Source: an uncultured Candidatus Actinomarina sp.
GTDB taxonomy: Bacteria; Actinomycetota; Acidimicrobiia; Actinomarinales; Actinomarinaceae
Direction of reading: 5' to 3'
DNA: 64,000 nucleotides
NCBI GenBank assembly: GCA_902599555.1
Contig: CACKFQ010000003.1
Span: forward strand, 64,607-128,606
The notes beneath the pieces are model-generated. The model was not told the origin of the DNA. It was given only the letters and a program-made list of their open reading frames with translations, and searched no databases. The translations under genes were made by a program, and so were the position numbers. Positions 1 through 25,229 of the stretch are shown in pieces (the first letter of the stretch is position 1; each line of letters starts with the position of its first letter).

Positions 1-1
1 A

Positions 2-556
2 GAACTCTTGGTAAAGAATTTCAATGGAAATATTTCTAATACGTATCTCTCAACAAATTACCAAGGACTTAAAAGTTATAACTTAACTATGAATATTCCA
101 GCTGAGGATTTTGAGAGTTTTTTAAAGGCAGTAGAGGATATTTCAAAGTTTACAAACATAAATTTAAATGCAAATGATGTAACAAAATATGTTCTTGATA
201 TAGATTCAAGATTGAAATCATTAAATGATGAAAAGGAAGCACTTGAAGAAATTAAAGCGGAAGCTGTATCGACATCAGATAAGCTTCAAGTGCAGTCTCA
301 ACTTCGTTACATAAATCAAGACATTCAAGTTTTGGAAGGACAAAAAGAATATTATGAAAATTCAGTATCGTACTCTTCTTTGACATTAGATATTAGAGAG
401 GGTTCTGGAGTATCGCTGTTTTCATGGAATTATTATGTTCAAAGAGCATTAAATTGGATTGAATCAATTATTGGTTTTATAGTATCTTTTGGAATAATTG
501 CAGTTCCGTTGTTGTTGCTAGTATTAGGATTTAGAAAATTTAGATCTAAAAACTAA
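2..556 (+). CDS. DUF4349-like protein (coiled coil plus C-terminal TM anchor), 5' end cut by window edge
   Basis: The frame is open from nt 2; the TTG at 8 is only the first possible start. A coiled-coil stretch DSRLKSLNDEKEALEEIKAE...QSQLRYINQDIQVLEGQKEYY is followed by the hydrophobic tail IIGFIVSFGIIAVPLLLLVLGF. Family name is from remembered architecture, no search run. Confidence 0.55.
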   Translation, partial: ELLVKNFNGNISNTYLSTNYQGLKSYNLTMNIPAEDFESFLKAVEDISKFTNINLNANDVTKYVLDIDSRLKSLNDEKEALEEIKAEAVSTSDKLQVQSQLRYINQDIQVLEGQKEYYENSVSYSSLTLDIREGSGVSLFSWNYYVQRALNWIESIIGFIVSFGIIAVPLLLLVLGFRKFRSKN

Positions 557-631
557 TGGCGCTTTCTTATATTGGTTTATTTTTAATAATTATCCTGCTT
601 ATATTTTTTGGAAAAAAAATTAAATAAGTAT

Positions 632-1435
632 TTAATTCGGTTGGTATGTTCCAAAAAAGACTTGCCATGCAAGACAAGTCTTAGCAAGCAAGCTTAACCA
701 AATGTAAGCTCTTTCACCGTATAGATAGTCTTTCCATTTACCTACTTGCTTATATTGCAAAATCATATTTATTGAAAAGGTATTAAAGAATAAAAATATA
801 CTGACAAAAATCCAAACAACAAATTGTGGAACTCCTTGGGGATTAGAGTCAGTTGCTATCCCATCACCTATTAGATTAATAAATATAAAAATCCAAGGGG
901 CAACACCAACTAGGCAACCCATTATGTAGCTTGTCCAATCAACTTTTTCTGTGTACTGATTGTGAACTTCCATCATCCATCCAAACCAACACATAGCTGC
1001 GTTCATAAAAAATATTCCAGCTAATGCCCAAATATCATAGATGCCAACTAAAAGTGCAATAAGAACAATCATGACTGATGCACTTATAGAGTATTCAATC
1101 CATCTGATCTTATTTATTCCTTTTGATAAGTCTTCTTTGTACTTTTTATAAAAAGGACCGGAAATTAAATAGTGAGCGACAGCTGACGCAAGTAAGAAAG
1201 TTGCAACTGCTGGACCAAAATTTGTAACTTCTGTCCAAATTTCTAATTCTGGAACAAGAGCAAAGCTTGATGGATCATTAGGAGAGCCAACTCCAACAAG
1301 TTGAGTCAAGGTTATTGGAACAACAAAATCTGAATTAACAACTGTTCCAAGCCAAAATAAAAGCCCTCCCTGAATAAGATGGACTGTTCCCATAATTAAG
1401 TTAAACTTTTTTAATTTTTGAATTTTTGTTTCCAT
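632..1435 (-). CDS. heliorhodopsin (7-TM retinal-binding protein)
   Basis: Full-length by-eye alignment to heliorhodopsin 48C12. Shared motifs: KFN..G.VHLIQ (His19), AVAHYLI (His88), RWIEYSISASVMIVLIA (counter-ion Glu114), GVAPWI, FLFFNTF, and LQYK..GKW.DYLYGERAYIWLSLLAKTCLAWQVFFGT (Schiff-base Lys252). ATG start preceded by AAAGGGGGAG. Confidence 0.9.
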   Translation of the reverse strand: METKIQKLKKFNLIMGTVHLIQGGLLFWLGTVVNSDFVVPITLTQLVGVGSPNDPSSFALVPELEIWTEVTNFGPAVATFLLASAVAHYLISGPFYKKYKEDLSKGINKIRWIEYSISASVMIVLIALLVGIYDIWALAGIFFMNAAMCWFGWMMEVHNQYTEKVDWTSYIMGCLVGVAPWIFIFINLIGDGIATDSNPQGVPQFVVWIFVSIFLFFNTFSINMILQYKQVGKWKDYLYGERAYIWLSLLAKTCLAWQVFFGTYQPN

Positions 1436-1488
1436 GCTCCCCCTTTAAATTAGTAAGCTAAGTTTAGTTTTCTAATTAATATTAAATC

Positions 1489-1683
1489 ATGGATAAACAA
1501 TTAATTTTTTCAGAAATTGAATCACTAATTTTTGATATGGACACATTAATTAAGTCTCTTGCAAATTCTAGGGAATATATAGCAGGGGGAGATTATGCCC
1601 GTGCTACTTCAAAGCTTTCGGAACTTGAAATTGAATTACAATCTCTTGCAGGAAGAGTTTCTTATATTAAATCAAGCCTTTGA
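1489..1683 (+). CDS. hypothetical small helical protein (64 aa), uncertain
   Basis: ATG ORF filling most of the 236-bp gap between the ABC ATPase and the heliorhodopsin, divergent from the latter. No Shine-Dalgarno. The last 12 nt overlap the convergent ATPase gene. Confidence 0.25.
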   Translation: MDKQLIFSEIESLIFDMDTLIKSLANSREYIAGGDYARATSKLSELEIELQSLAGRVSYIKSSL

Positions 1684-2697
1684 GGGGAATGTTGTAACCT
1701 CTGAAATATTTATATTTACCTTATCGCCAGATTCAAATATTGTATTAGGTAAAGAACGTGCTCTAAAAACTTCACCTTTACTATTTTGGAATGATATTAC
1801 CTGATCATGGCCATAGAAGGTACATTCTTTAACCAAGTAACTTCCGTCTGAATCTAAAGTGAGTTCAATACACTCAGGTCTAATTGATACATCTAAAGCA
1901 CCATCATAAGCAGATACAAAAGTTCCTAAAGATGTCTCAACTCTACCGTTAACTGAGTAGCCCTTTAATATATTGGGGTCACCTACAGAGTTCGCTACAG
2001 TTTGGCTAACTGGATTTAAATAAATTTCTTGCGGCGTAGCGCTTTGTATAACTGTTCCATTTTCTAACACACTAACTACATCGCAAACTGACAATGCTTC
2101 CTCTTGATCATGAGTTACAATTATCGCAGTAGTCTCAGTTTTTCTTAAGAGATAAACTACTTCGTCTCTTAATTCCCTGGCCATATGTGCATCTAAGCTT
2201 GTAAATGGCTCATCTAGAAGAATTACTTCCGGACCGGGAGCTATCGCCCTTGCAAGTGCAACTCTTTGTTGTTGACCACCAGATAGTTCTTGAGGATATT
2301 TATTTTTATAATTTTCTAAATTACACATTTCTAAAACTTCTTCTAATCTTCCTTCATTTATTTCATTTTTGGAAAGTCCAAAAGATATATTTTTTTCAAC
2401 ATCTAGATGTGGAAATAATGCATAGTCTTGGAAAACCATACCAACATTTCTATCTTCAGGAGGTACAAAAACTTCATCGCTTGAAATGATTTGATTTCTC
2501 ATTTCTATTAAACCAGAGTCTGGTTTTTCAAATCCAGCAATTAATCTTAATGCAGTAGTCTTTCCTGAGCCTGACATTCCCAACACGCCAACAATTGATC
2601 CATTCCAAACGTCCAAATTAAAATCTGACAAAACAGTCTCTTTTTCGTAAGACTTTGTTACTGATCTTGCTCGTATAATTAAATTTTCAAATGCCAT
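1672..2697 (-). CDS. ABC importer ATP-binding protein, FbpC/PotA-like (ferric iron type)
   Basis: Walker A GMSGSGKTT, signature LSGGQQQRVALARA, Walker B ILLDEPFTSLD, H-loop VTHD. About 100-aa C-terminal regulatory/TOBE-like extension. The start shares nt 2697 with the permease stop. Confidence 0.9.
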   Translation of the reverse strand: MAFENLIIRARSVTKSYEKETVLSDFNLDVWNGSIVGVLGMSGSGKTTALRLIAGFEKPDSGLIEMRNQIISSDEVFVPPEDRNVGMVFQDYALFPHLDVEKNISFGLSKNEINEGRLEEVLEMCNLENYKNKYPQELSGGQQQRVALARAIAPGPEVILLDEPFTSLDAHMARELRDEVVYLLRKTETTAIIVTHDQEEALSVCDVVSVLENGTVIQSATPQEIYLNPVSQTVANSVGDPNILKGYSVNGRVETSLGTFVSAYDGALDVSIRPECIELTLDSDGSYLVKECTFYGHDQVISFQNSKGEVFRARSLPNTIFESGDKVNINISEVTTFPSKA

Positions 2698-4253
2698 TAG
2701 TTTGTTAAATTTCTAGTACTAAGTATATATGTAGGAAGTGCGCTAATTGCTAACAAAATAAATGCAGAAAATGCTGCTTGTGTAAATAAAGCTTCAGAAG
2801 CGTTAGACCATATGTCAACAGCCATAGTGCTAAAGCCGGTTGGACGCAGTAGTAAGGTTTGCGGTAACTCTTTCATTGTTGAAAGAAAAACTAAAGCTGC
2901 ACCAGCTAATAATCCTTTGTAAATAAGTGGAAATGTAATTTTTATAAATGTTTCCATCTTTGAAAAACCAAGGCCAGAACTTGCTTCAATATAGGATAGT
3001 TTCACTTGTTCCATTGACGCTTGTCCTCCTCCAACAGCTTGAGGTAAAAAAACTATTAAGTATGAGATTATAAGTGTTGTAAAAGTTTGATAAATCGCTG
3101 GAACAATTTTAATAGTTATAAACAACATTGAAATTCCTACAGCAATATGAGGAAGCCCATATAAAGTAAGGGTTACTTTTTCGAATAAATCACCAAATTT
3201 TGATCTATATTGAGAAATCATTATAACTATTGGAGTAGCAATAATCATTGCAAATATTGAAGTTACAGTAGCTGCTGTTAGTGATCCAACTACGCCTGAT
3301 AGAACGTTATTAACAGCATTGCCTTGTGACATACCTCGAATTAACCAATAGGAAAGAACACTTATTGGTATAACTAAACTGAATAAAATAACTAAAGCAA
3401 AAAATGCTAAAACTAAAACTTTATTTTTGTGAGACAATTTAGCTTTTACAATTTCTCTTGGTGTTCCAGAAACTTTAGCTGACCTACTTAATTCACTTCC
3501 CCTTTGAGCAAAACTGATTATTAAAGCAATAAATATCAACAAGGTCGAATAGAAAATTACAGGATCACCATTTATATTTATTGTGTAATAAGAGTAAATT
3601 GCCTTTGTTAATGTTCCATATTTCATTAAAGAAACAGCACCAAAATCAGAAATTACATACAATCCAACTAAAAGAGATGAATAAATAATAGGTTTTTTTA
3701 ATCTTGGTAAAACAACACTGCTATACATCTTTATTTTTTTAACTCCAAGTGACCTAGCAGCATCTTCAACTGTTGAATCTAAATTTCTAAGTGCACTACT
3801 GCAAATTAATTGAACATATGGATAAGTAAACAAAGTAAGTACAATCCAGCTTCCAATAAAACCATCAATTCCAGATATTTCATTTATCCCAAAACTTGAA
3901 AAAATATCTACAAATAATCCCCTTGGTGAAAATGCTGAAACATATGTTAAAGCACCTATGTAAGACGGTATTACTAAAGGTAAAATTGTAAGAGTAAACA
4001 ATAACTTAGAAGCAGGAATTTCATATCGAACGATAAGAATAGAAATTAATAAACCTAAAAATAGGCTTGTAAGAATTACTGCAATAAATAAAAATATTGT
4101 ATTCAAAAATAATGTAAGAACATCCCATGATTGCAAAAATTCAGACAAATTTTTTGAAAAATTTGCAAAACGCCAAAACATATAAAAAATAGGCATCAAA
4201 AATAAAATTAAAATAAAAGTATTTGTTACTATCAGAGGTTTTGGTGCCTTCAC
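2697..4253 (-). CDS. ABC importer permease with two fused transmembrane domains (FbpB-like)
   Basis: 518 aa, about 12 TM segments, duplicated binding-protein-dependent permease architecture. GTG start. Located between the SBP and ATPase genes. Confidence 0.85.
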   Translation of the reverse strand: MKAPKPLIVTNTFILILFLMPIFYMFWRFANFSKNLSEFLQSWDVLTLFLNTIFLFIAVILTSLFLGLLISILIVRYEIPASKLLFTLTILPLVIPSYIGALTYVSAFSPRGLFVDIFSSFGINEISGIDGFIGSWIVLTLFTYPYVQLICSSALRNLDSTVEDAARSLGVKKIKMYSSVVLPRLKKPIIYSSLLVGLYVISDFGAVSLMKYGTLTKAIYSYYTININGDPVIFYSTLLIFIALIISFAQRGSELSRSAKVSGTPREIVKAKLSHKNKVLVLAFFALVILFSLVIPISVLSYWLIRGMSQGNAVNNVLSGVVGSLTAATVTSIFAMIIATPIVIMISQYRSKFGDLFEKVTLTLYGLPHIAVGISMLFITIKIVPAIYQTFTTLIISYLIVFLPQAVGGGQASMEQVKLSYIEASSGLGFSKMETFIKITFPLIYKGLLAGAALVFLSTMKELPQTLLLRPTGFSTMAVDIWSNASEALFTQAAFSAFILLAISALPTYILSTRNLTN

Positions 4254-4287
4254 TCTATTAAGGATAAATAAAAATTACAGTTATTAA

Positions 4288-4328
4288 AAGAAAAAAATTC
4301 TGGCCAGAATTACCTGGCCAGAATTTTT
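4288..4328 (-). terminator. intrinsic terminator/attenuator between SBP and permease genes
   Basis: 10-bp perfect stem attctggcca (4297-4306) / tggccagaat (4315-4324) with an 8-nt loop. Flanked by A7 (4291-4297) and T4-5 (4324-4328), so the minus-strand RNA ends in a U7 tract. Confidence 0.7.
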
Positions 4329-4354
4329 GACTCATTTTGATACTAAATGAAGAA

Positions 4355-5455
4355 TCAAAATCCTGCCTGAGCAATCAACTCTACAGCTTTTTCCTGCCAT
4401 AGAGATAACGCTGACCAATTTAGGTTTGAAGGAGAGTTCAAACTATTAATGTCTGGAAGCAAAGCATTAGGCTTAATACCTGTAACAAGAGGGAACTCGT
4501 AAACAGTATTTGTAAATGTTTCTTGAGCCGCTTTTGAATGTAGGAATTCAATAAATGCTAACGCTGCTGGTTTATTTTGGCTTGAAGACAAAATACCAAC
4601 ACCAGCAGGCATAACCATTGCTCCACATCCTTCATCCAAATATACATTCTTAATTGGCTCATTTCCGCTTTCAGCCAACACTCGCAATGTGTAATAGTGA
4701 TTAATCATTCCAATATCTAGCTCACCGGCTGCAGCAGCTGCAACTTGTGGTGAGTTTTTAGGATATTCAGCATATCCAAGTCCATTTATGGTGGTTAGCC
4801 ATTCTAAGACTTTTTCTTCACCGTCCAACTCAACCATACAAGCAACCATTGCTATGAATGAAGAATTGGTTGGAGCAAGTCCTAATCGATTTCTAAACTT
4901 TTCATCTGCAAGACCATAAATATCATTTGGCAACTCCGAATCTTGAACGTCTCTAGTATCAACAACTAGAGCTCTAGATCTACCAGATGTTCCCACCCAG
5001 TAATTATTTTTATCTACAGCCCAACCGGGAACATTATCTAAAATATCAGCCGGTAGTCTCTCAAACAGGCCTTCTTTGGCGACAATTCCAAGACTTACTG
5101 GGTCTTGAGAAAAGAAAACATCAGCAGGACTGATTGCGCCTTCAAGTTTAAGAGTTCCTGCTAACTCCGCACTTTTAGCATATCTTACCTCGACTGTTAC
5201 CCCCGAAGTAGATTCAAATTCAGCAATAATTTCTGATACTAAACTTTCTTTTCTTCCGCTATAGATGACAAGCGTCCCGCTTACTTCTGCTTCTTCCTCG
5301 GTTAGTGCTGCATTAACTGCAGCTTCAATTTCTTCTTGAGAGACTTCTCCAGCTGGACCTTGTTCACCAGCCGGACCACGTTCACCAGCTGTAGTAGTAC
5401 AAGCCGATAAAACTATTGTGAGAGCAACTAAAACTAAAATATATTTCTTATTCAC
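4355..5455 (-). CDS. ferric-iron ABC substrate-binding lipoprotein (FbpA/AfuA/FutA family)
   Basis: Family-1 SBP pattern (LVIYSGRKE..., SPADVFFSQD, INHYYT di-Tyr iron-ligand motif, YEFPLV). The preferred start is GTG at 5455, preceded by GAGG at 5 nt. It gives the lipoprotein signal MNKKYILVLVALTIVLSAC. The track start at 5500 adds 15 non-signal residues. Confidence 0.85.
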   Translation of the reverse strand: MNKKYILVLVALTIVLSACTTTAGERGPAGEQGPAGEVSQEEIEAAVNAALTEEEAEVSGTLVIYSGRKESLVSEIIAEFESTSGVTVEVRYAKSAELAGTLKLEGAISPADVFFSQDPVSLGIVAKEGLFERLPADILDNVPGWAVDKNNYWVGTSGRSRALVVDTRDVQDSELPNDIYGLADEKFRNRLGLAPTNSSFIAMVACMVELDGEEKVLEWLTTINGLGYAEYPKNSPQVAAAAAGELDIGMINHYYTLRVLAESGNEPIKNVYLDEGCGAMVMPAGVGILSSSQNKPAALAFIEFLHSKAAQETFTNTVYEFPLVTGIKPNALLPDINSLNSPSNLNWSALSLWQEKAVELIAQAGF

Positions 5456-5880
5456 ATTTACCTCAAATTTCAAATATACTTTGTTAATACTACTTAACAT
5501 TTTAAGTTAATGCTAATTTATTTAAAAAAAATTAAAAATTTTTAGAATTCAGATTTAAGTTTAAGAAATTTGACTGTGTTGAGAAAATTAGTTTACGCTA
5601 CCTGATTTAGAAAGCCTTTTAAAATTAAACGATCTTAAAACAAACTTTCCCCCATTGCGGACAAACCACATAAAGCCAGCAAGTAAGTAAGCGTAAGGAC
5701 ACATCATATTACTGTTATTATACATTAAATAGTAAAATATTAATAATGCAAAAAGATCCTAAGATTGTAAGAAAATATGAACCAGTAATTTGGTTACTTT
5801 TTTTTGGATTGACCTTCGCGGTTGGTTGCCCAGCATTTTAGAAATATCATTATTTGTTAATTACTGTTAACATGTAACTA

Positions 5881-6567
5881 ATGAATACTAAAAACCCAAA
5901 TATTCTCTCTCAAGATGAAATAGAAAGTTTACCAAATTCTTTTTATTCTCATGCTGAAGCAATATATCATCTTAATGAAGTTGGTATTGAAGTAAAGCAA
6001 ACCCGAGTAGCAGAGTGGCTAGGTGTTAGTAGAGCAAACGTTTCTCAAGTTATAGGAAGAATGCAAAATAATGGTCTTATTGAATTAACAGATGAATTAA
6101 AGCTCTCTAAAAAAGGTGCTTATCTAGCAAAAATAATTTCACGCAGACATCGAATAATTGAGAGATTTCTTTCAGAAGTCCTTGACTTACCTTGGGACAA
6201 AGTTTACAAAGAAACAAAAAAATGGGAAAACATTCTAAGTCCTACTACTGAGGAGGCAATGTTAAAAATTTTGGGTAATCCAACTACTGGTCCTTTTGGT
6301 AACCCAATTCCTTATTCAAACTATAAAAAAGTTCCCATGAAAAATTTATTGGATGTTGATCCAAATGAAGATTATGAAATTTTAAAAATTTCAGAAGAGC
6401 TTAAAAAAGATAACAATGTAATTGATTTTCTACAGAAAAATCAGATGTTGCCTGGAAACAATATTTTTATTTCTGATACAAACAAGTATTCAATTACTGT
6501 CAGTATTACAAAAAATCAATATTTTGGTCTCGATCAGTACATTGCTGAGAGAGTATTTGTCGGTTGA
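5881..6567 (+). CDS. DtxR/IdeR-family transcriptional regulator with C-terminal SH3-like domain
   Basis: wHTH VAEWLGVSRANVSQVIGRMQNNGLIEL, dimerisation helix RRHRIIERFL, NPTTGPFGNPIP (IdeR has NPTTSPFGNPIP). Divergent from the iron importer. Confidence 0.85.
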   Translation: MNTKNPNILSQDEIESLPNSFYSHAEAIYHLNEVGIEVKQTRVAEWLGVSRANVSQVIGRMQNNGLIELTDELKLSKKGAYLAKIISRRHRIIERFLSEVLDLPWDKVYKETKKWENILSPTTEEAMLKILGNPTTGPFGNPIPYSNYKKVPMKNLLDVDPNEDYEILKISEELKKDNNVIDFLQKNQMLPGNNIFISDTNKYSITVSITKNQYFGLDQYIAERVFVG

Positions 6568-6607
6568 TTCAATTTATGATTATACAGAGATTTTTTATAA
6601 TTGACTT

Positions 6608-7090
6608 ATGATTAATTTATTGTCAAATATACCTTATGAACTATTTAGTTATATTGGTGGTGGAATATTTTTGTTTATCATCTTATATAAATTTTTCCCA
6701 AATTTATTTATTAAGATTCATAAACCAGTCTTTTTCACGATAGGTATATTGTCATTATCTTTAGGATACGTTGGAATTGTAATTCCTGGTCTTCCCACAA
6801 CTGTTTTTATACTGATTGCAGCATGGGCTTTCTCAAAATGTTCAGAAAGATTTACATTTTGGATTGAAAACCACAGAATTTTTGGTCCAATCATTTTAAA
6901 TTGGAAAACATATAGAGGTCTTTCAAGAAGGGCTAAGAAGCTAGCCATTTCAATGATTATTCCAACTTTTGCATTTACTATCTACTTTGTTTTTTCACTT
7001 GTTGGAGACTTAATTTTTGGTGCTTTTGGAATCGCTCTTTGCACATGGTTAGCAACTAGACCAGAGCCACCTCTTGAAAACGAAGCTTAA
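6608..7090 (+). CDS. YbaN/DUF454-family inner membrane protein
   Basis: GIVIPGLPTTVFILIAAWAFSKCSERFTFWIENHRIFGP...W matches the remembered DUF454 core; 4 TM segments. Confidence 0.7.
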   Translation: MINLLSNIPYELFSYIGGGIFLFIILYKFFPNLFIKIHKPVFFTIGILSLSLGYVGIVIPGLPTTVFILIAAWAFSKCSERFTFWIENHRIFGPIILNWKTYRGLSRRAKKLAISMIIPTFAFTIYFVFSLVGDLIFGAFGIALCTWLATRPEPPLENEA

Positions 7091-7092
7091 AT

Positions 7093-7695
7093 TTAGTTAG
7101 CTTCGGGGATTTGATAGCCTATCGGTGAAACTTTATCTAATTCAAATACATCTCTTGCTTGAGCTTCGTAATTCAATCCTATAGATATTTGATCTCCTTC
7201 AGTAACCCTATTCCCATTTTCATCTAGCCTTGCATTCATGGTTGCTTTTTTGCCAGATTTACAAATTGTTTTAATTTCAGTCATCTCATCAGCCCAGGCT
7301 AATAAATATACACTTCCTGGAAAAGGTTCTCCACGAAAATCTGTTCTCAATCCATAGCAAAGAACAGGAATTTTAAGCTTATCTACAACCAAAGACAATT
7401 GAAGCACTTGTTTTGGGCTAAGGAACTGTGATTCATCAACAAGTACGCAAGACACTTTTTCCCTTTGATGTTCATGTGCAGTCCAAACATATAGATCATC
7501 ATCAGCAGTAAAAATTTCACATTCCCTGTCCAAACCAATTCTTGAAGCAATTTTTCCCTCTCCAAATCTGTCATCTAGTTTTGGTGTGAATAAAAGAGTT
7601 CTCATATTTCTCTCTTCATAATTATGTGCAGACTGTAAGAGAGTTGTACTTTTTCCAGCATTCATTGCTGCATAATAAAAATATAATTTTGCCAT
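7093..7695 (-). CDS. tdk: thymidine kinase
   Basis: [33 protein letters not shown]..., VLVDESQFL and [24 protein letters not shown] are near-identical in pattern to E. coli Tdk. Confidence 0.93.
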
Positions 7696-7727
7696 TTCTT
7701 ATATATTAGTTATTTAATTTATTGTTG

Positions 7728-8723
7728 CTATCGAACAGCAACTATTCTTCCAACAGTTTTTCTGCTTCCAATCATGTCAAGATACTCGACAATTTCATCA
7801 AATTTAATAGTTTTAAAGACAGGTTCAATTTGTTGATTAGTGTATAAATCAAATATTAACTCCATCCTTGATTGAAGATATTTTTTATCATCATTTTCGA
7901 AACTGATCATGAAAACTCCCATAATTGAAATATTCTTAACAAGTAAATAGCTAAGCGGTTGGGTGGGAATATTTCCACTTGCAAAGCCTACTATCAGTGC
8001 TCGGCCTTCAGAACTGAGCAGACGTATTCCTTGTTCATATGGTTCGCCTCCAACTTGATCATAAAAAATATCCACTGGTCTTTTACCAAATTTTGCTTCC
8101 ACAGTTTCTTTTAAATCTTCCTCTTGATAATTTATTACTAAATCTGGTCGAAATTGTTTAACCAACTCTTTCTTTTTTTCAGAACCTACTGCGGCAATAA
8201 CTCTTGCACCAGATATCTTTGCAAGTTGAATAGCTGATAATCCCACTCCACCTGCTGCTGCATTCACTAATACCAATTCATTGGGTTTTATTTGAGCTCT
8301 TCTGTGTAGTGCAAAGTCTGAAGTAAGGTATGACATTAGAATTGCCGCACCTACTTCAAATGAAATATTTTCAGGAAGTTTATAAGTTAGATTTTCAGAC
8401 ACCACACAAACATCACCAAAACTTCCATGTCTTCCAGATCTAAATACAGTGGTCGCTGCTACAACCCTATCTCCTACTTCAAACTGACTATCTTCATGAC
8501 ACTCCTTTATGTAGCCTGCAACCTCAAAACCAGGTACAAATGGATGTTTTGGGTTAGATTGGTACAGCCCACTTGATAATAAAAGATCAGCATAATTTAA
8601 AGTTGCTGCTTTGGTTTCTATTATTAACTCTTTATCTTTGATTTTTGGGTAATCCATTGTTGTAAATTCAAGATCTGTGAATAAACCCATTTCTTTTTGA
8701 ACTAATGCTTTGTATTCATTCAT
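7728..8723 (-). CDS. NADPH:quinone oxidoreductase / zeta-crystallin-like MDR family
   Basis: PFVPGFEVAGYI, GDRV, and nucleotide fold VLVNAAAGGVGLSAIQLAK; no structural zinc Cys cluster. Confidence 0.8.
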   Translation of the reverse strand: MNEYKALVQKEMGLFTDLEFTTMDYPKIKDKELIIETKAATLNYADLLLSSGLYQSNPKHPFVPGFEVAGYIKECHEDSQFEVGDRVVAATTVFRSGRHGSFGDVCVVSENLTYKLPENISFEVGAAILMSYLTSDFALHRRAQIKPNELVLVNAAAGGVGLSAIQLAKISGARVIAAVGSEKKKELVKQFRPDLVINYQEEDLKETVEAKFGKRPVDIFYDQVGGEPYEQGIRLLSSEGRALIVGFASGNIPTQPLSYLLVKNISIMGVFMISFENDDKKYLQSRMELIFDLYTNQQIEPVFKTIKFDEIVEYLDMIGSRKTVGRIVAVR

Positions 8724-8764
8724 ATCAATATCATAAAAGAATTTATTAATGGTAGTCTTTTTTT

Positions 8765-9145
8765 ATGGAAGTAATTATTAAATACATACACATGATTGGT
8801 TTGTCAGTCTGGCTTGGATCAATGATTCTTTGGGCAGTATTTGCACCTCAGCTTTATAAAATCGATCCTTCGAAAAAAACTACAGATACTTTAAGAGGCT
8901 ATTTTAGTTCAGTCTCTTGGACATCATACTTTTTAGCATTAGTGTCCGGATTGACTCTTTACTTTTTAGAACAAAGCACAACTTCAAATTGGCTACTTGA
9001 AGTATCGCTTCTTGGGTTAGCTGGTGTTGTGATTGCATTACATAGCTATGCTACAAAACTTAGTGCTGCATTAAGAGGTGCTTTTAATGGGGTAATGTTA
9101 ATACTTGCTTTAGTTGTTGTGTACCTAGCAACTATATATATTTAA
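8765..9145 (+). CDS. hypothetical 4-TM membrane protein
   Basis: 126 aa, four hydrophobic segments; no recognisable catalytic motif. Confidence 0.5.
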   Translation: MEVIIKYIHMIGLSVWLGSMILWAVFAPQLYKIDPSKKTTDTLRGYFSSVSWTSYFLALVSGLTLYFLEQSTTSNWLLEVSLLGLAGVVIALHSYATKLSAALRGAFNGVMLILALVVVYLATIYI

Positions 9146-11707: not shown

Positions 11708-11842
11708 CTACTCTTCAGTATTTTCGTTTTTTTGTTTATTCCTTAACCAGGTCAATAGTAAAGCAGGTACTAGAAACATCAACATTTCATCCCAACCACC
11801 CTGATGATTTAGTGCAGGTGGTGGAATTATTTTGGTGTACAT
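11708..11842 (-). CDS. candidate 44-aa single-TM small protein translationally coupled to nuoN
   Basis: Below the ORF-track length cutoff. The ATG overlaps the nuoN TAA (TAATG), and GAAGG lies 9 nt upstream. Product is MYTKIIPPPALNHQGGWDEMLMFLVPALLLTWLRNKQKNENTEE, one hydrophobic helix plus a basic/acidic tail. Confidence 0.4.
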   Translation of the reverse strand: MYTKIIPPPALNHQGGWDEMLMFLVPALLLTWLRNKQKNENTEE

Positions 11843-13314
11843 TAGAGATAACCTTCGACCATCCAGCGAGTTATGTTAACAAGGGTGTCTGGAAGTAATC
11901 CAAAATATATTGTTAAAGCAGCCAACAAACCTAGCAGTAGTTTGTCTGAGTTTTTAACCTGTATTTTTTCAACTACATTTTCTGTTTTCTCAACTGCTGC
12001 TACCCAAATTGGTCGTAAGTAAAAATAAAATCCCGCAACTGTAGTCAGCATTAAGACTGTTACCAATATATATCTCTCATATGACCAAAGATTGGTAATA
12101 AGGATAAATTTCGAGACGAATCCACTTGTTAATGGTAATCCTGCAAGGCCAAGCATGAATATTGAAAATGTAATTGTTATAAATTTATTTTCCTTAAATA
12201 ACCCTGAGATATTTGAGATTTGAAAGTCCGAACTCAATTGACCGCTTATTATTGAAAAAACTGTAAAGATTCCAATTAATTGGATAATGTAAGTTATTAA
12301 ATAAAACGTTGATGCACTTATTCCATAAACTCCTGAAGATATGCCAGAAAGTATAAAGCCTGATTGAATAACTCCACTATAAGCAATTAGTCTTTTCAAA
12401 TCAGTTTGGTTTGCAGCAAATAAAGCGCCAGCGAGTACTGACAAGATTACAACCGCACCAAAAAATAAATCAAATTGATCAATAATGAATGTTAAAGAGA
12501 CTGCAACAAGTCTTGCAAGGACTATGAATGATGAAACCTTTGCAACAGTTGCCATATATCCTACATATCCAGTAGGAGAACCCTGGTATACGTCTGGTGC
12601 CCATGCTTGAAAAGGTGCAGCTGCAACTTTAAATAGTAATCCAACAATTATCAATATCAATCCAATAAATGTTGTTAGTGGAACATTATCTGGTCCTATG
12701 AAACTAATTGCAATACTAGTTTCATATACACCAATTATTGATAGTGAGACATAAATTAGCGCAATACCATATACAAATATACACGAAGCAAGTGAACCAA
12801 GTAAGAAATATTTCAAAGCTGCTTCATTACTTAATTGATCTCCTCTGTTAAGTCCAGCTAAAGCATATAAACTAATTGAACCAATTTCTAAACCTATGAA
12901 TAACATTATGAAGTTCTCAGCATCAATCATTAATAAAAATCCAGATGCAGACATTAAAATTAGTATTAAAGCTTCAGTAGTTTTGTCTTCTATTAATTCT
13001 GAAGTTTTCCAGAAAGAATTAAAAGTAAAAAGCAAAACCATTCCAACTAGTACGTTTCCGACAAGGGCAAACTCATCAAGAAGAATTTTTTCTGTGAAAT
13101 AAGAAGAGACACCATCAGTTAGAAACAAACCGAACTTTAAAAATATTGTAAATAAAGTTAGCAAGATTCCAACAAACGATACATATTTTTTTACGTACAT
13201 TGGAGTTGAAATAGTAATTGTGCAAAATAATAAAACAATAACTGTCAGCAATAGTGCCAATGTAGGTGCAATGACTACGTAATTTATTCCTAATATCTCA
13301 GAAACTGTTGTCAT
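11842..13314 (-). CDS. nuoN: NADH-quinone oxidoreductase subunit N
   Basis: 490-aa antiporter-like subunit with about 14 TM segments, last of the nuo string, 4-nt overlap with nuoM. Confidence 0.9.
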   Translation of the reverse strand: MTTVSEILGINYVVIAPTLALLLTVIVLLFCTITISTPMYVKKYVSFVGILLTLFTIFLKFGLFLTDGVSSYFTEKILLDEFALVGNVLVGMVLLFTFNSFWKTSELIEDKTTEALILILMSASGFLLMIDAENFIMLFIGLEIGSISLYALAGLNRGDQLSNEAALKYFLLGSLASCIFVYGIALIYVSLSIIGVYETSIAISFIGPDNVPLTTFIGLILIIVGLLFKVAAAPFQAWAPDVYQGSPTGYVGYMATVAKVSSFIVLARLVAVSLTFIIDQFDLFFGAVVILSVLAGALFAANQTDLKRLIAYSGVIQSGFILSGISSGVYGISASTFYLITYIIQLIGIFTVFSIISGQLSSDFQISNISGLFKENKFITITFSIFMLGLAGLPLTSGFVSKFILITNLWSYERYILVTVLMLTTVAGFYFYLRPIWVAAVEKTENVVEKIQVKNSDKLLLGLLAALTIYFGLLPDTLVNITRWMVEGYL

Positions 13315-14798
13315 TTTAGGTCCTTAAACATTGCTATAGTATCACTCAAAAAACTTGCCTCCTGAATTACAAAACTCTCAATATAGTTTGGATAAATTCC
13401 AATAAATAACATTAATAAAACTAGTGGAGCTATTGACGCTGTTTCACGGGAATTGAGATCACTTAAGCTTTCATTTTCTTCATATTTAATAGGTCCAGTA
13501 AACATTCTTTGATATGCCCATAACATATATATTGCAGCTAAAACTACACCAAATGCTGCAAAGGATGTCAGAATTTTGTAGCTGTTAAAGCTTCCCATAA
13601 GAATCATGAACTCTCCGACAAAACCATTTAAACCAGGAAGGCCTATCGAGGCGAATGATGTAAATAGAAATATTGCTGCATACCTTGGCATAGATATCTT
13701 GACTCCGCCAAAATCACTAATTTTTCGAGTATGTCTTCTTTCGTATATAAATCCAACCAGCATAAACAAAGCACCTGCAGTGATACCGTGATTTATCATT
13801 TGTATGATTGCTCCCTCAATACTTAAAAATCCACCAGCTGAAATTCCAAGCATAACAAATCCCATATGACTAACTGAAGAATAAGCAATCAGCTTTTTGA
13901 TATCGATCTGAGCAATGGCAACAATAGCACCATAAATAATTCCAATAACAGACAAGATTGCAATCAGATTTTTGTAAGCTAAAAAACCTTCTGTAAAAAA
14001 TGGTATGGAAACTCTTAGTATTCCATAGGCACCAACTTTTAGAAGAACTCCTGCCAACATTATACTTCCAGCAGTTGGAGCTTCTACGTGTGCATCCGGC
14101 AACCAAGTATGCAGTGGAAATATAGGCACTTTAATTAAAAAGCCAAATGTAAATAATAAAAATAAAGTTTTTGACTGTGACTCAAGCAAACTTAATGAAG
14201 ACAATGTTTCAAAATCTACAGCAAGCCTACCATTAACTCCAAAGCTTAAAACTGCTGTATAAACTGTTCCAATAAAAATAAATACCGAACCAAAAACAGT
14301 GTACAGAATGAACTTTATAGTTGCGTATCTTCTATTCTCACCTCCCCATATTCCCATTAGGAAATACATAGGGATAAGTAAAGCCTCAAAAAATATAAAT
14401 AATGAAATTAAATCACCACTTATAAATACACCATTGATAGCAAAATGTAACATTAACAATGATCCAACAAATCCTTTGCTTTCAGAGTGATCTTTGCCAA
14501 TAGAAAGCAATGAAACAAATACTAATAATGAGCTAAGCAATAATAAAAGTGTTGACATTCCAGAGAGACCGAAATGTAGATTAATTCCGTAAGACTGTAT
14601 CCATTGAAAAGTTGATAAAATTGTAAATTCTGTTTTTGCATATTCACCAAATAGCAAATAAACACATTGAGTTAAGGTTATTAAAGAAAAGGCAATTCCA
14701 ATTGGTCTAAATGTCTCTTTTCTTGAATTCGGAATCAAAAAGATAAGTAATGCACTAAAAAGTGGAACTAACAACAAAGAGAACATAATCGAAATCAT
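13311..14798 (-). CDS. nuoM: NADH-quinone oxidoreductase subunit M
   Basis: 495 aa; WLPDAHVEAPTAGSIMLAGVLLK motif of antiporter-like subunits; position between L and N. Confidence 0.92.
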   Translation of the reverse strand: MISIMFSLLLVPLFSALLIFLIPNSRKETFRPIGIAFSLITLTQCVYLLFGEYAKTEFTILSTFQWIQSYGINLHFGLSGMSTLLLLLSSLLVFVSLLSIGKDHSESKGFVGSLLMLHFAINGVFISGDLISLFIFFEALLIPMYFLMGIWGGENRRYATIKFILYTVFGSVFIFIGTVYTAVLSFGVNGRLAVDFETLSSLSLLESQSKTLFLLFTFGFLIKVPIFPLHTWLPDAHVEAPTAGSIMLAGVLLKVGAYGILRVSIPFFTEGFLAYKNLIAILSVIGIIYGAIVAIAQIDIKKLIAYSSVSHMGFVMLGISAGGFLSIEGAIIQMINHGITAGALFMLVGFIYERRHTRKISDFGGVKISMPRYAAIFLFTSFASIGLPGLNGFVGEFMILMGSFNSYKILTSFAAFGVVLAAIYMLWAYQRMFTGPIKYEENESLSDLNSRETASIAPLVLLMLFIGIYPNYIESFVIQEASFLSDTIAMFKDLK

Positions 14799-16714
14799 CT
14801 TTGCACCAATGGTGTAGCAATAAACAATGCAATTAGAAGTAGTAAAAATAAACCAAAATAAACAACATAATTTCTCACTAAACCAGTTTGAGTTGTAGAT
14901 GTAATTTTTGAACTTTTATTAAATGCAGTTGATACAAAGTTAACAGATCCATCAATCAACATTCCATCAACAACAACTGCTACTTTACGACTAAGGTTCT
15001 TCATGCCGGAGACAAAGAAAAAATTACCGAATTTATTTAAATACAAAACATTTGAGGAAAGATTTTTAACTAGGTTAATAGGACTTTCAAGTTTAAATTT
15101 TTTCAAGTCAATTCTTTTATGAAGCTCCATTCCAAATAAAAGAAAAGCAATAATTAGTCCTGAGAAACCAGCACCAATAGAGAGTACTGCTAACACAACT
15201 AATGTAATGCCCTTTGGTAAATGCGTTACTTCAACATTCTCTAAAGTCACGTGTAAAACTTTTTCTAGACCATGAAAAAATGGTGTATTTATAAAACCAA
15301 TAAATATAGAAAATATACCTAAAAGAAGTAGGGGTCTCGTCATTGCTTTTGGTGCTTCAGCCACATCTGAGTGTTCAAAACCATTATCTTTTTCAAAAAT
15401 TAGCAACCAATGTCTTCCCATATAGAATGCTGTAAGAAAAGCCGCACCTAATGCTAAAGCCCAAAAAACATAATAAATACCTCCATTTACAAAAACGGAA
15501 GCAAGTATTTCATCTTTTGACCAAAAACCTGCAAGAGGAGGAATGCCTGATATTGCAAGAGTTCCTATTCCCATCATTGATGCAGTAATTGGCATCTTTT
15601 TTCTAAGTCCACCCATTTTTCTAATATCCTGTTCGTGGTGCATAGAGTGAATAACAGCACCAGCACCAAGAAACAAAAGTGCTTTAAAAAATGCATGAGT
15701 GACTAAATGAAAAATTGCAGCAACATAAGCCCCTGCTCCAATTGCAATAAACATAAATCCGAGCTGAGAAATTGTTGAATATGCCAATACCTTTTTGATA
15801 TCAAATTGATTTATGGCAGAAAATGCAGCAAGAAGTGCCGTTATAAGTCCAAAAATTATAATCAATAAGCTAGCTATTTTTGAGTGTTGTAATAAGGGAG
15901 ATATCCTAACAAGCATAAACACTCCTGCGGTAACCATTGTGGCTGCGTGAATAAGAGCGCTTGCAGGAGTTGGACCTTCCATGGCATCTGGAAGCCAACT
16001 AAAAAGTGGGAATTGAGCAGATTTACCAAAAGCACCTAGCAATAAAAAGAGGGATATTGCCGTAATAGTAGACTCCGCTATTCCAGAAGTATTTTGTAAA
16101 ATTTTATAAAAATCAAATGTATTAAAAGTATTTAAAATAATCATTAATCCAATTAAAAATCCAAAATCCCCAACTCTATTTATAACAAATGCTTTATTAC
16201 CGGCTTTTGCAGCAGCTGGTTTTTTAGACCAAAAGGAAATTAATAGATATGAACTCAAACCAACTAATTCCCAACCAAAGAACATCACTAAGAAGTTTGA
16301 TGACATGACTAGAAGTAGCATTGAAAAAACAAAAAAGTTAAAATACACAAAATAATTACAATGATTTTCGTCTTCTTCCATATAAGAAGTGGAAAAAAGT
16401 TGAATTACAAAAGATAGTCCAGTTACCAAAATCAGCATAATTCCAGATAGTCCATCAAGAGTAAAACCAATACTTATATCAGGATTAGAAATCCATTGAA
16501 ACAACTCAACGTTTACAGGTTTAAATTTATCAAGCGCTAAGGAGATGAATGAATAAGCGGCAATTGCAAATGACAAGAGCGCACTATTTAAAGTAAAAAA
16601 GTTAGTGATTAATTCATTAAATAATTTTTTGTTTAGAAAAAGGAAGATAGCAGTTAAAAAAGGTAGAAAGATTGGGAGAAGAAAAATTAATTCCAATTTA
16701 ACCTCTTGATACAT
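14795..16714 (-). CDS. nuoL: NADH-quinone oxidoreductase subunit L
   Basis: 639 aa; [22 protein letters not shown]; long C-terminal extension with terminal TM, characteristic of NuoL. Confidence 0.92.
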
Positions 16715-17006
16715 TCAATACATCTACTGATGCAGATGACTGCTTTCTAAATATAGAAACAATAATCGCAAGGCCAACTACTACTTCAGCTGCTGCTACT
16801 ACAAGAACAAAAAATACAAAGACTTGACCATCAACCTGTCCAAAATGTTTTGATGCAGAAATAAAAGTTAGGTTTACTGCGTTGAGCATTAATTCAATAC
16901 ACATAAACATAATGAGAGCATTTTTTCTAATCATCATTCCTAGAAACCCTATTGAAAAGAGAATCGCTGCAAGTGTAAGATACCAATCGGTAGTTACTTC
17001 AAGCAT
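16698..17006 (-). CDS. nuoK: NADH-quinone oxidoreductase subunit K
   Basis: [24 protein letters not shown] prefer the second ATG (17006, [10 protein letters not shown]...), which matches the usual ~100-aa length. The track start is 17030. Confidence 0.9.
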
Positions 17007-17526
17007 TACTATTTCGTTTCTTAGTATCATAAGCTAAAGCTATAGCAGCAGCAGTGGCAACAATAAGAAGTAAAGAAATGATTTCAAATGGAAATATCCA
17101 CTCTGTAAAAAGTGCGCCTGCAATTAATTGTGGTGTACCTTCTGCATCAAACTCAACAGGTGGGAACCAGAGATCCCACTTGAAGTCTGAACTTATTGCA
17201 ACATATGCTAAAAGGGAAATAAGAATTAAAAATACTCCACTCACTAGAAATGTTTGACCTTTAATAGAGTCAGTAGTTTGTTCTTTTTTATCTACCCCAA
17301 TCATCATTATTACAAACAAAAATAGAGTCATAACTGCTCCTGCATAAACTAACATTTGAACCATTGCAACAAAAGTTGCATTTAAAGTTATATAAATTAT
17401 TGCTAAGGAAACCAGTGTCATAACTAAACCCATAGCATTGTGTACAGGGTTTTTGGCAAATATAACAATGAGTGCGCCTATGATAATGAGACTTGCTGGA
17501 GCAAAGAATAAAAGCGCCTCAACCAA
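16999..17526 (-). CDS. nuoJ: NADH-quinone oxidoreductase subunit J
   Basis: 175 aa, 5 TM segments, [10 protein letters not shown]...[15 protein letters not shown]. Confidence 0.88.
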
Positions 17527-17527
17527 C

Positions 17528-18142
17528 TTACTCTTCCTCCAATGTTTGTCCTTCTTCAGGAGGTTTCTTTCCTACTCCAAGTGAACCTGACCAATTTACA
17601 ACATTTTGAAAATTTGGATTTCCATTAGGAGAAGTTGCTCTCATCCATCCATCAGATGTATTCAAATCATCAAAATTAGTAAGCTTAGTTTGTTCCTCAT
17701 GGGTGTTAGGAGTTCCATCATCTTTTACAACTAATACCTCTTTATCAAATATTGCCTCGGACCTATTAGCAACACTCATCTCAAAAAGAGAAGTCATAGT
17801 GATTGCTTCAGTTGGGCAGGCTTCCACACATAATGCACAGTAAATACACCTGAGCATATTGATTTCATAAATAAATCCGTATCTCTCCCCTGGGCTTACA
17901 GGGTTCTCTTCTGGATTATCCTCTCCTCGAACATAAATGCATTGTGCTGGACAAACTCCTGCACACAACTCACAACCTATACACTTTTCCATGCCGTCTT
18001 CATATTTGTTTAAAACATGGCGACCGTGAAATCTTTGGGGCTTTTCTCTAAATTCTTTTGGATACTTGTCGGTAACTGATTTTCTAAATAATTCTTTGAA
18101 AGTTACTTTCAATCCTTTTATTAAACCAAAACTGTCACTCAT
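17528..18142 (-). CDS. nuoI: NADH-quinone oxidoreductase subunit I
   Basis: Two 4Fe-4S motifs, CIGCELCAGVCP and CIYCALCVEACP; about 50-aa C-terminal tail. Confidence 0.93.
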   Translation of the reverse strand: MSDSFGLIKGLKVTFKELFRKSVTDKYPKEFREKPQRFHGRHVLNKYEDGMEKCIGCELCAGVCPAQCIYVRGEDNPEENPVSPGERYGFIYEINMLRCIYCALCVEACPTEAITMTSLFEMSVANRSEAIFDKEVLVVKDDGTPNTHEEQTKLTNFDDLNTSDGWMRATSPNGNPNFQNVVNWSGSLGVGKKPPEEGQTLEEE

Positions 18143-18145
18143 AAC

Positions 18146-19243
18146 TTAACTCCAAGGTAAACCAAACTCTCTTAATCCTAGAACAATAGCGGATAAAATA
18201 AGCCAAACTAGAGATGCCGGTATAAGCCTTTTCCACCCAAGCTCCATCAATTGATCATATCTGAGCCTTGGTAGTGTGGCTCTTATCCAAACAAATATGA
18301 ATAAAAGTGCAAACGTTTTAACTCCTAACCAAATTATTGGCATAATTGCAGATATTATTGGAGGCAAAATGCCCTCAAAAGTAGGGCCAAGCCACCCACC
18401 TAGAAAAAAGGTTGCAGTAATTGCACACATGTTGAACATATTTATATACTCCGCCAAGAAAAACATAGCAAACCTGAATCCAGAGTATTCTGTATGAAAT
18501 CCTCCAACCAATTCTTGTTCTGCTTCGACTAAGTCAAAAGGGGCTCTGTTTACTTCAGCTACAGCAGCTATGAAAAATATTCCAAATGCAATAAATTGAG
18601 GAAAAATATTCCATTTAGGAATAAATGAAACAATTGAGCTAAGAATCGGAATTGTTGTTGATAAGTTTCCAGATTGGCTACTAACTATATCTACAAGAGA
18701 TAGTGAACCAGAATATAATATTACTGGTACTAAAGACAATCCCATAGCTGCCTCGTAGGATATCATTTGTGCGGATGCTCTAACACCGCCGAGAAGTGGG
18801 TATTTAGATCCAGAAGACCACCCAGCTAAAACTACACTATATACAGCAATTGATGACAAAGCTAAGAAATAAAGAACACCTACGTTTAAGTCTGCACCAA
18901 CAAAATCAACAATGTAATCTTTACCACCAATTTCAATGTTTAAGTCCGGACCTAATGGAATGATCATGAAAATTAAAAATGATGGTACCAATGCAATTAT
19001 TGGCGCCAACAGATACATTGCTCTATCAGCTTTTAGAGGCATGATTTGCTCTTTTAATAATAATTTAATTGCATCTGCTACAGTTTGTAAAATCCCAAAA
19101 GGACCAGCTCTATCAGGCCCCACTCTAGACTGCATTCCAGCAACTAATTTTCTTTCAAGCCATATCAACAATATTGTGTTAGTCAACAAAACAGCTAAAA
19201 CAATATTTGATTTAATTAATGCAATTATTAATTCAGTTGACAT
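18146..19243 (-). CDS. nuoH: NADH-quinone oxidoreductase subunit H
   Basis: RVGPDRAGPFGILQ..ADAIKLL, EYSGFRFAMFFLAEY, 8 TM segments. Confidence 0.93.
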   Translation of the reverse strand: MSTELIIALIKSNIVLAVLLTNTILLIWLERKLVAGMQSRVGPDRAGPFGILQTVADAIKLLLKEQIMPLKADRAMYLLAPIIALVPSFLIFMIIPLGPDLNIEIGGKDYIVDFVGADLNVGVLYFLALSSIAVYSVVLAGWSSGSKYPLLGGVRASAQMISYEAAMGLSLVPVILYSGSLSLVDIVSSQSGNLSTTIPILSSIVSFIPKWNIFPQFIAFGIFFIAAVAEVNRAPFDLVEAEQELVGGFHTEYSGFRFAMFFLAEYINMFNMCAITATFFLGGWLGPTFEGILPPIISAIMPIIWLGVKTFALLFIFVWIRATLPRLRYDQLMELGWKRLIPASLVWLILSAIVLGLREFGLPWS

Positions 19244-24815: not shown

Positions 24816-25229
24816 TTAATCAACCTTTGGCGCATTTTTAAACTGGACTGGTATTCTTCCAGATCCATAATTTTTTCTTAATGGGTGTCCTTCCCAATCA
24901 TCAGGCATTAAGATTCTTGTTAGATCTGGATGGTCTTCAAAAACGATACCGAACATGTCATAGGCTTCTCTTTCATAAAAATTTGCACTAGGGTATATGT
25001 CAGTTATTGAAGGTATTGTTAAATCTTCATCATTAACGAATACTTTTACAGTCTTACGTGAATTTTTTGAAGTTGATAAAAATTGAACAACTATTTCAAA
25101 TCTAGGTTCTTTTTTTCTAAACCAATCAACTACTGTTAGGTCTACCATCATTTCAAATCCATCTTTTTTTATGGATTCGATTAGTTCTTTATATTCTTCT
25201 GTTGAGGTACTAATAATTTCAGGGTTCAT
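24816..25229 (-). CDS. nuoC: NADH-quinone oxidoreductase subunit C (short form)
   Basis: [38 protein letters not shown] core; only 137 aa. Confidence 0.88.

Follow-up and report, generated by a model that had tools for sequence, protein, structure and literature searches.

The heliorhodopsin gene of Candidatus Actinomarina: neighbor of a ferric-iron importer cluster across a conserved opposite-strand gene

Gene content of the locus

The DNA analyzed here—a stretch of 64,000 nucleotides referred to as the window—has a G+C content of about 33% throughout, and its first 9.4 kb are 98 to 100% identical to single-cell genomes of Candidatus Actinomarina. The heliorhodopsin gene (632–1435, minus strand) starts with ATG, encodes 267 amino acids, and is assigned by Pfam, NCBIfam, and structure alignments. 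On one side, it is convergent with the 3′ part of a DUF4349 gene (1–556, plus strand; Pfam PF14257, E = 4e-29), which is truncated by the window edge and is seen in full, with 264 amino acids, in the near-identical locus L001. On the other side follow a small ORF on the opposite strand—orf64—and, on the heliorhodopsin strand, the genes of an ATPase, a permease, and a substrate-binding protein (SBP), with a repressor gene beyond them. Farther into the window lies a 14-subunit nuo cluster (11842–26088), of which the NuoN-, NuoG-, and NuoF-type genes are assigned by Pfam and the others by ORF size and order.

The Pfam scan covered the ORFs of at least 110 amino acids from 26 kb to the window end, the heliorhodopsin neighbors, the region from 8.7 to 13.3 kb, and two nuo genes; the remaining ORFs of the nuo block (13.3–26.1 kb) were assigned from size and order alone. 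Among the scanned ORFs, none is crtB, crtI, crtY, or blh, in agreement with the preliminary description, which had seen no retinal or carotenoid genes in the window. The sole isoprenoid-related genes among them are a polyprenyl synthetase (53554–54537) and one GGR-type reductase. Rfam identifies a single tRNA and nothing else over the window.

Earlier publications already contain the gene, its residues, its neighbors, and the idea of an operon. Kovalev et al. 2020 place the Actinomarina heliorhodopsin between two nuo clusters, and Lopez-Perez et al. 2020 (Fig. 5) report the locus with the heliorhodopsin always between two nuo clusters, with key residues matching those of 48C12, and with Actinomarinales devoid of retinal synthesis genes. 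In Bulzu et al. 2021, the locus appears as cluster C11, a transcriptional unit afuA-afuB-afuC-HeR-nuo(11)-... is proposed, and the heliorhodopsin is considered a possible light switch. As described in the locus passages of these papers, the published Actinomarinales locus shows no difference in kind from the window: it has an Fe3+ ABC transporter and an iron-dependent repressor upstream, nuo genes on both sides, and likewise no retinal synthesis genes. These passages enumerate genes of the same strand; the 64-amino-acid gene on the opposite strand does not appear in them. The single-cell genome AG-333-G23 of Kovalev et al. 2020 corresponds to locus L050 of the present comparison (83% identity). 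A literature search turned up neither experiments nor transcript work on the Actinomarina heliorhodopsin, and a search for diel or metatranscriptome data on it returned nothing relevant.

The heliorhodopsin

Both family models match the ORF far above their cut-offs: Pfam PF18761 with 295.7 bits (E = 3e-88; cut-off 26.7), aligning residues 8 to 263 with profile positions 1 to 241 of 242, and the NCBIfam HeR equivalog NF038020 with 310.8 bits (cut-off 100). The best match among solved structures is TaHeR (6is6; E = 6e-67), aligned end-to-end. The founding member 48C12 (6su3; E = 1e-56) aligns end-to-end as well, which bears out the whole-length alignment claimed earlier. As judged by these family models and structure alignments, the ORF is a genuine full-length heliorhodopsin of Candidatus Actinomarina, and the identification made in the preliminary description stands. 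The motifs quoted there—VHLIQ, AVAHYLI, RWIEYSISASVMIVLIA, APWI, FLFFNTF, and GERAYIWLSLLAKTCLAWQVFFGT—are all found in the ORF.

In the structure alignment, the residues H19, H88, E114, S248, and K252 correspond to H23, H80, E107, S237, and K241 of 48C12. K252 is the retinal Schiff-base Lys of helix 7, aligned with K241 of 48C12 and K238 of TaHeR, and E114 is the single Glu counter-ion of helix 3, aligned with E107 of 48C12. Hence, His19, His88, Glu114, and Lys252 occupy the positions that had been assigned to them, with the Lys and the Glu aligned with the retinal pocket of 48C12. All five residues are invariant in 45 of 45 distinct Actinomarina orthologues.

The topology check that had been proposed alongside the family search gives a consistent picture—the Lys in helix 7 and an N-in charge pattern. 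Of the Lys and Arg residues in the loops, 14 lie on the N-terminal side (in the N-terminus and the loops 95–110, 155–165, and 227–243) and 0 on the opposite side. With all positive loop charges on the N-terminal side, this indicates an inverted topology, namely seven predicted transmembrane helices with a cytoplasmic N-terminus. A single-sequence AlphaFold2 model of the protein reached a pLDDT of 46 and was discarded as too poor.

TaHeR, from a Thermoplasmatales archaeon, is the closest solved relative, with residues 3 to 266 of the Actinomarina protein aligned to TaHeR 13 to 258. Both proteins have the His, Glu, Ser, and Lys at the retinal pocket in common. In the Actinomarina protein, the first outer loop is longer and 8 residues (GDGIATDS) are inserted in the loop before helix 6, and the host is bacterial whereas that of TaHeR is archaeal. 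48C12 is more distant than TaHeR, although the hosts of 48C12 and of the Actinomarina protein are both actinobacteria.

The iron importer and its repressor

The ABC system upstream of the heliorhodopsin features three genes on the heliorhodopsin strand. The FbpC/AfuC-like ATPase (1672–2697, minus strand) carries an ABC_tran domain (Pfam, E = 2e-32) and a weak TOBE_2 match (17.5 bits, below the cut-off of 21), and its best NCBIfam matches are PhnT2, PotA, and ferric models, all below equivalog cut-off. The FbpB/AfuB-like permease (2697–4253, minus strand) is a fused double permease of 518 amino acids with two BPD_transp_1 stretches. The SBP (4355–5500, minus strand; likely start GTG at 5455) is an FbpA-type ferric-iron binding lipoprotein. 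It matches solved ferric-binding proteins with E = 1e-62 to 1e-20 over residues 77 to 380 with the HYY motif aligned, among them PDB 7w3w (E = 1e-62), Thermus FbpA 3wae (E = 3e-48), and Neisseria FbpA 1d9y (E = 3e-45). None of the three ABC components reaches an NCBIfam equivalog cut-off. Divergent from the importer genes lies a DtxR/IdeR-type iron-dependent repressor (5881–6567, plus strand) with the domains Fe_dep_repr_C (E = 9e-21) and Fe_dep_repress, matched by the NCBIfam DtxR model below its cut-off. The ferric-iron assignment of the preliminary description holds because of the SBP matches to FbpA-type structures together with the DtxR-type repressor, and reading the system as a ferric-iron FbpABC-type importer appears sound at the family level. 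The strand of the importer genes and the distance of 236 bp from the ATPase stop to the heliorhodopsin start are likewise as described earlier.

Upstream of the SBP gene, an iron-box-like 19-mer, TTAGTTTACGCTACCTGAT (5588–5606), agrees with TTAGGTTAGSCTAACCTAA in 13 of 19 positions. Other clades feature better copies (14 to 15 of 19) at a constant distance to the SBP start, and the score never exceeded 13 in 300 random windows used as background. A search for the DtxR/IdeR consensus with up to 3 mismatches found no match anywhere in the window. In 28 relatives, a ferrochelatase gene is situated between the repressor and SBP genes, which is absent in the variant of the window.

Between the SBP and permease genes, the terminator scan detected a 16-bp hairpin with a U-tract (4293–4328, minus strand). 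Most Actinomarina loci have retained this hairpin, with compensatory changes in the stem, and it probably serves as an intrinsic terminator or attenuator within the importer string.

The 236-bp gap and orf64

Importer and heliorhodopsin genes had been described as separated by a gap of 236 bp. The distance is correct; the gap is not empty. It harbors, on the opposite strand, a conserved ORF of 64 amino acids—orf64 (1489–1683, plus strand)—whose 3′-terminal 12 nt lie within the ATPase gene. The ORF is intact with 64 amino acids in 52 of 52 relatives with flank, at identities of 39 to 98%, and its frame contains 0 stops in 52 distinct sequences, compared with 120 to 473 in the other five frames. 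Differences at codon positions 1/2/3 amount to 0.34/0.19/0.47, and the median dN/dS is about 0.4. As judged by this pattern, orf64 is a genuine conserved gene evolving as coding sequence.

Database homologues of orf64 number 70, each of about 64 amino acids and each annotated as hypothetical. An exhaustive profile search yielded 16 representative clusters, consisting of the same small family and a few long proteins; the latter (146–946 amino acids) match in short internal stretches that are probably chance helical matches and were set aside. Pfam and NCBIfam contain no match, and an orf64 HMM run against all ORFs of 26 distant heliorhodopsin loci found none either. Within the reach of these searches, the family is confined to the Actinomarina lineage. 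AlphaFold2, run with an alignment, predicts a two-helix hairpin (pLDDT 96), and from this predicted fold the product looks soluble. A fold search returned generic helical hairpins only, all with E > 0.7.

Since orf64 fills the 236-bp gap, about 53 bp remain as the real spacer ahead of the heliorhodopsin. This AT-rich stretch (1436–1488) is common to the divergent heliorhodopsin and orf64 starts, is the sole non-coding DNA upstream of the heliorhodopsin, and measures 53 to 60 bp across the order. The median intergenic spacer of these genomes is 3 bp according to the published description, so that a truly empty gap of 236 bp would be odd. The spacer carries a Shine-Dalgarno sequence, AAAGGGGGAG (1437–1446, minus strand), read from the sequence ahead of the heliorhodopsin ATG, and the aligned relatives retain a purine-rich GG(A/G)G block there. 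It also contains an imperfect palindrome of 14 + 14 nt (1448–1477); being conserved only in the closest relatives, this palindrome is not taken as an operator.

Transcription of the heliorhodopsin gene

The importer and heliorhodopsin genes lie on the same strand, 236 bp apart, with the conserved opposite-strand gene between them. In the region 1436–1671, the terminator scan found no hairpin followed by a T-run, and the predicted RNA fold is no better than that of shuffled sequence (z = −0.42), which confirms the earlier observation of no stem-loop plus U-tract there. Signals of this type do occur in the lineage, as the hairpin after the SBP gene shows. Promoter-like matches are no more common than in shuffled sequence and are uninformative in such AT-rich DNA. 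No iron-box-like site was found upstream of the heliorhodopsin, where the best scores equal background. Because the gap has no terminator and the spacer allows no confident promoter call, read-through from the importer genes is possible, and with it co-transcription. Such a read-through transcript would, given the orientation of orf64, be antisense to the whole of this gene. With opposite-strand genes on both sides, the heliorhodopsin resembles a single-gene unit by orientation, and, from this gene arrangement, it most likely forms its own transcription unit.

The preliminary description had raised the possibility that the heliorhodopsin is the last gene of a ferric-iron importer operon; in its full form, this reading has the gene transcribed by read-through and its product binding FbpB/FbpC in light and thereby tuning import. 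Consistent with it are the shared strand and the gene order kept in every flanked Actinomarina locus, the gap without terminator or stable structure, and the heliorhodopsin gene devoid of an iron box or a recognizable promoter of its own. A transcriptional unit of this kind is part of the C11 description by Bulzu et al. 2021, and a precedent exists in OcHeR–OmrDE, an ABC transporter activated by a heliorhodopsin in light. The reading is unlikely, however: the transcript would be antisense to all of orf64, the conserved hairpin with its U-tract already breaks the string after the SBP gene, the pairing is not known outside one order, recombination has split heliorhodopsin and ABC block apart in close relatives, and the OmrDE transporter of the precedent is an exporter of type I, with fused domains, and not an SBP-dependent importer.

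Conservation and inheritance of the locus

The loci of relatives were taken from a genome scan with one genome per species; an exact-sequence look-up of the heliorhodopsin protein in public assemblies gave no match. The scan comprises 54 Actinomarina-type loci with 82 to 99% protein identity to the heliorhodopsin of the window and 26 distant heliorhodopsins with 44 to 51% identity. The order SBP–permease–ATPase–heliorhodopsin is common to all Actinomarina loci whose upstream flank is long enough—including those in which the importer proteins are down to 48 to 65% identity and the repressor is missing—and importer adjacency is found at 0 of the 26 distant loci. Hence, the adjacency expected in relatives is borne out within the Actinomarina loci and fails among the distant ones.

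Such a same-strand order across the whole order could reflect selection for the pairing. However, nearly all genes are syntenic in Actinomarinales, so that a kept gene order is weak evidence of a functional link, and conserved synteny in this streamlined, extremely syntenic lineage is the best reading of the iron-importer adjacency.

Two close relatives show where the locus has been broken. In L004, nucleotide identity to the window is 97 to 98% in the heliorhodopsin and spacer and 95 to 98% in the outer flanks, compared with 73 to 82% in the block that extends from DUF454 over the repressor and ABC genes up to and including orf64; within this block, orf64, the ABC genes, and the repressor have 73 to 79%. 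In L023, the outer flank and all genes up to and including the ATPase gene are 97 to 100% identical to the window, compared with 74 to 84% in orf64, spacer, and heliorhodopsin. The breakpoints of L004 and L023 map to the two ends of orf64, and, as judged by these identity profiles, recombination in close relatives affects the heliorhodopsin independently of the ABC block.

Across Actinomarinales, the importer proteins diverge out of step with the heliorhodopsin: heliorhodopsin identities of 91 to 92% go together with SBP identities of 48 to 50% in L025 and L052, and identities of 82 to 83% with 75 to 77% in L050 and L051. Invariant positions of the heliorhodopsin amount to 117 of 151 in the membrane core, 31 of 56 in the cytoplasmic loops, and 34 of 60 in the outer loops. 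The extra conservation of cytoplasmic loops that was looked for as a mark of a partner interface was not found. With cytoplasmic loops no more conserved than outer ones, there is no positive sign of such an interface, and neither divergence nor loop conservation points to a co-adapted heliorhodopsin–importer interface. The contribution of this analysis is, in this respect, negative: the supposed operon is interrupted by an opposite-strand gene, and heliorhodopsin and importer have independent inheritance, so that co-transcription is not to be assumed for the idea of a light–iron link.

The same recombination events bear on a further reading, in which the hairpin protein of orf64 would be a soluble transducer of the heliorhodopsin, by analogy with the Anabaena sensory rhodopsin transducer. 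The two genes form a divergent pair with a common spacer of 53 to 60 bp throughout the order, orf64, spacer, and heliorhodopsin differ from the window as one block in L023, and the confidently predicted fold looks soluble. Set against these points are the L004 breakpoint between orf64 and heliorhodopsin, the much faster evolution of orf64 (39–98% identity) compared with the heliorhodopsin (82–99%), the restriction of the family to the lineage with no homologue beside the 26 distant heliorhodopsins, and the lack of an informative structural match. Of the readings weighed here, this one is the least probable.

Downstream genes and complex I

Between the heliorhodopsin and nuoA, the opposite strand carries DUF4349 and/or a 362-amino-acid phosphodiesterase-family gene, amounting to 1 to 2 opposite-strand genes in every locus examined. 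In L001, the 11-subunit nuo cluster begins about 2 kb beyond the heliorhodopsin. The 362-amino-acid gene was considered as the published ferrochelatase; it belongs to the phosphodiesterase family instead, and the ferrochelatase of other genomes sits between the repressor and SBP genes.

In the locus descriptions of Kovalev et al. 2020, Lopez-Perez et al. 2020, and Bulzu et al. 2021, a link of the heliorhodopsin to complex I is suggested, according to which it would act as a light switch of respiration via the downstream 11-subunit complex I, which lacks NuoEFG. The position of the heliorhodopsin, always between two nuo clusters in the published loci, agrees with this reading, as do the 14-subunit cluster of the window and the 11-subunit cluster downstream in L001. 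Nonetheless, the opposite-strand genes before nuoA separate the two in every locus examined, and synteny is the only evidence, as with the importer. A role as a switch of complex I is very improbable, if slightly less so than the transducer role of orf64.

Proposed function and candidate partners

In the surface ocean, Actinomarina ranks with the most abundant photoheterotrophs, and its heliorhodopsin is universally conserved. A proven link of the heliorhodopsin to iron uptake or respiration would matter ecologically.

The preferred reading, with a probability of roughly 60%, is a stand-alone, retinal-scavenging light sensor with its own transcription unit that contacts a partner in light. The protein is the canonical heliorhodopsin of Actinomarina, encoded by a core gene at a fixed site between the FbpABC cluster and the 11-subunit nuo operon. 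Marks of a unit of its own are the Shine-Dalgarno sequence of the gene, the start 53 bp from the divergent orf64, and the convergent genes behind it. By analogy with characterized family members, the protein is expected to bind all-trans retinal, not to pump ions, and to enter a long-lived photo-intermediate after light, upon which its cytoplasmic face would alter the activity of a partner protein. The retinal would have to be scavenged from outside since the lineage is without retinal synthesis.

As to the partner of this stand-alone sensor, no neighbor is a likelier named candidate than the iron importer FbpBC, even though the likelihood that it is the partner is low; behind it rank the 11-subunit nuo complex and the 64-amino-acid hairpin protein. 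It is at least as probable that the partner gene lies at some other place in the genome. Direct contact of the light-activated heliorhodopsin with FbpB/FbpC, raising or lowering ferric-iron uptake, is correspondingly doubtful. If true, it would couple metal acquisition to daylight—with photoreduction making more iron available and a greater risk of oxidative damage—and would make the heliorhodopsin the first rhodopsin with demonstrated control over a nutrient importer. The light modulation of iron uptake proposed in the preliminary description is, thus, a legitimate but unsupported hypothesis: the adjacency on which it builds stands within Actinomarinales, and nothing was found beyond adjacency, given orf64, the convergent genes, the breakpoints, and the heliorhodopsin gene without an iron box.

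The nearest parallel among characterized systems is OcHeR of Ornithinimicrobium cerasi, which, activated by light, raises the activity of the OmrDE transporter by direct binding (Cho et al. 2024). The preliminary description had placed this ABC transporter in a Firmicute, which is incorrect: Ornithinimicrobium cerasi is an actinobacterium—a high-GC member of Micrococcales—and the partner is an exporter. Like the Actinomarina gene, that of OcHeR follows ABC transporter genes of its own strand. OmrDE is a heterodimeric multidrug exporter of type I with fused domains, in contrast to the SBP-dependent ferric importer of Actinomarina. In addition, an opposite-strand gene intervenes in Actinomarina, unlike in OcHeR–OmrDE.

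In two further systems, AbHeR–glutamine synthetase and heliorhodopsin–photolyase, the published accounts describe a heliorhodopsin that contacts the product of a neighboring gene and thereby regulates it. The Actinomarina heliorhodopsin has neither glutamine synthetase nor photolyase as a neighbor; the photolyase of Actinomarinales adjoins the type-1 rhodopsin instead, as stated in the locus description of Lopez-Perez et al. 2020.

The heliorhodopsin–importer locus

The locus is a mosaic: Comparison of window positions 1–9000 with L004 and L023, two further Actinomarina-type heliorhodopsin loci, reveals blocks of 73–84% identity inside flanks of 95–100%. The breakpoints coincide with the ends of orf64 (1489–1683, + strand), a conserved ORF of 64 aa with a predicted helical hairpin. 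This ORF is divergent in orientation from the heliorhodopsin gene (632–1435, − strand), overlaps the 3' end of the ATPase gene (1672–2697, − strand) by 12 nt, and is found in Actinomarina as the sole lineage. No Shine–Dalgarno sequence precedes orf64, so that its translation may proceed from a leaderless mRNA.

The gene of the substrate-binding protein (SBP; 4355–5500, − strand) of the FbpABC-type importer and the divergent DtxR/IdeR-type repressor gene (5881–6567, + strand) are separated by a spacer of 380 bp (5501–5880)—exceptionally long by the standards of this genome. In 28 relatives, its place is taken by a gene for a 338-aa ferrochelatase, located in L004 at positions 2845–3861 within the SBP–repressor interval; none was found across the 64-kb window. 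The spacer holds a putative ORF of 31 aa, MQKDPKIVRKYEPVIWLLFFGLTFAVGCPAF, read by eye (5746–5841, + strand) and featuring a single hydrophobic stretch, and, upstream of the SBP gene, an iron-box-like 19-mer (5588–5606). Clearer iron-box-like copies, such as TTAGGTGATCCTAAATTAA, occur in other clades 127–145 nt ahead of the SBP start. Five loci of the scan (L020, L022, L024, L025, and L052) have no repressor gene, and their SBP identity is just 48–64%.

At the N-terminus of the SBP, a short repeat of collagen-like type, GERGPAGEQGPAGE, comes after the lipobox LSAC; L004 carries this repeat as well. Between the SBP and permease genes, a perfect 16-bp hairpin with a U-tract (4293–4328) is kept across species, and changes in its stem are compensatory. 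It is probably an attenuator that gives surplus SBP mRNA.

Heliorhodopsin affinities and genomic surroundings

The nearest solved relative of the heliorhodopsin is archaeal. Outside Actinomarina, the nearest heliorhodopsins are those of archaea, Patescibacteria, and Firmicutes (47–51%), with other actinobacterial ones at 44–47%. These affinities are consistent with the published tree, which places C11—the Actinomarinales cluster of Bulzu et al. 2021—with clusters C8–C10.

A six-frame translation of the window lacks the type-1 rhodopsin motif RYxDW. Of the ORFs scanned, just two are isoprenoid-related: one encodes a polyprenyl synthetase (53554–54537, + strand), the other a geranylgeranyl-reductase-type flavoprotein (26168–27433, − strand). 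A nuo cluster of 14 genes spans 11842–26088 (− strand): Pfam confirms the genes of NuoN, NuoG, and NuoF type, and ORF sizes suggest the assignment of the rest. This cluster agrees with the layout described by Kovalev 2020 and Lopez-Perez 2020, with two nuo clusters enclosing heliorhodopsin.
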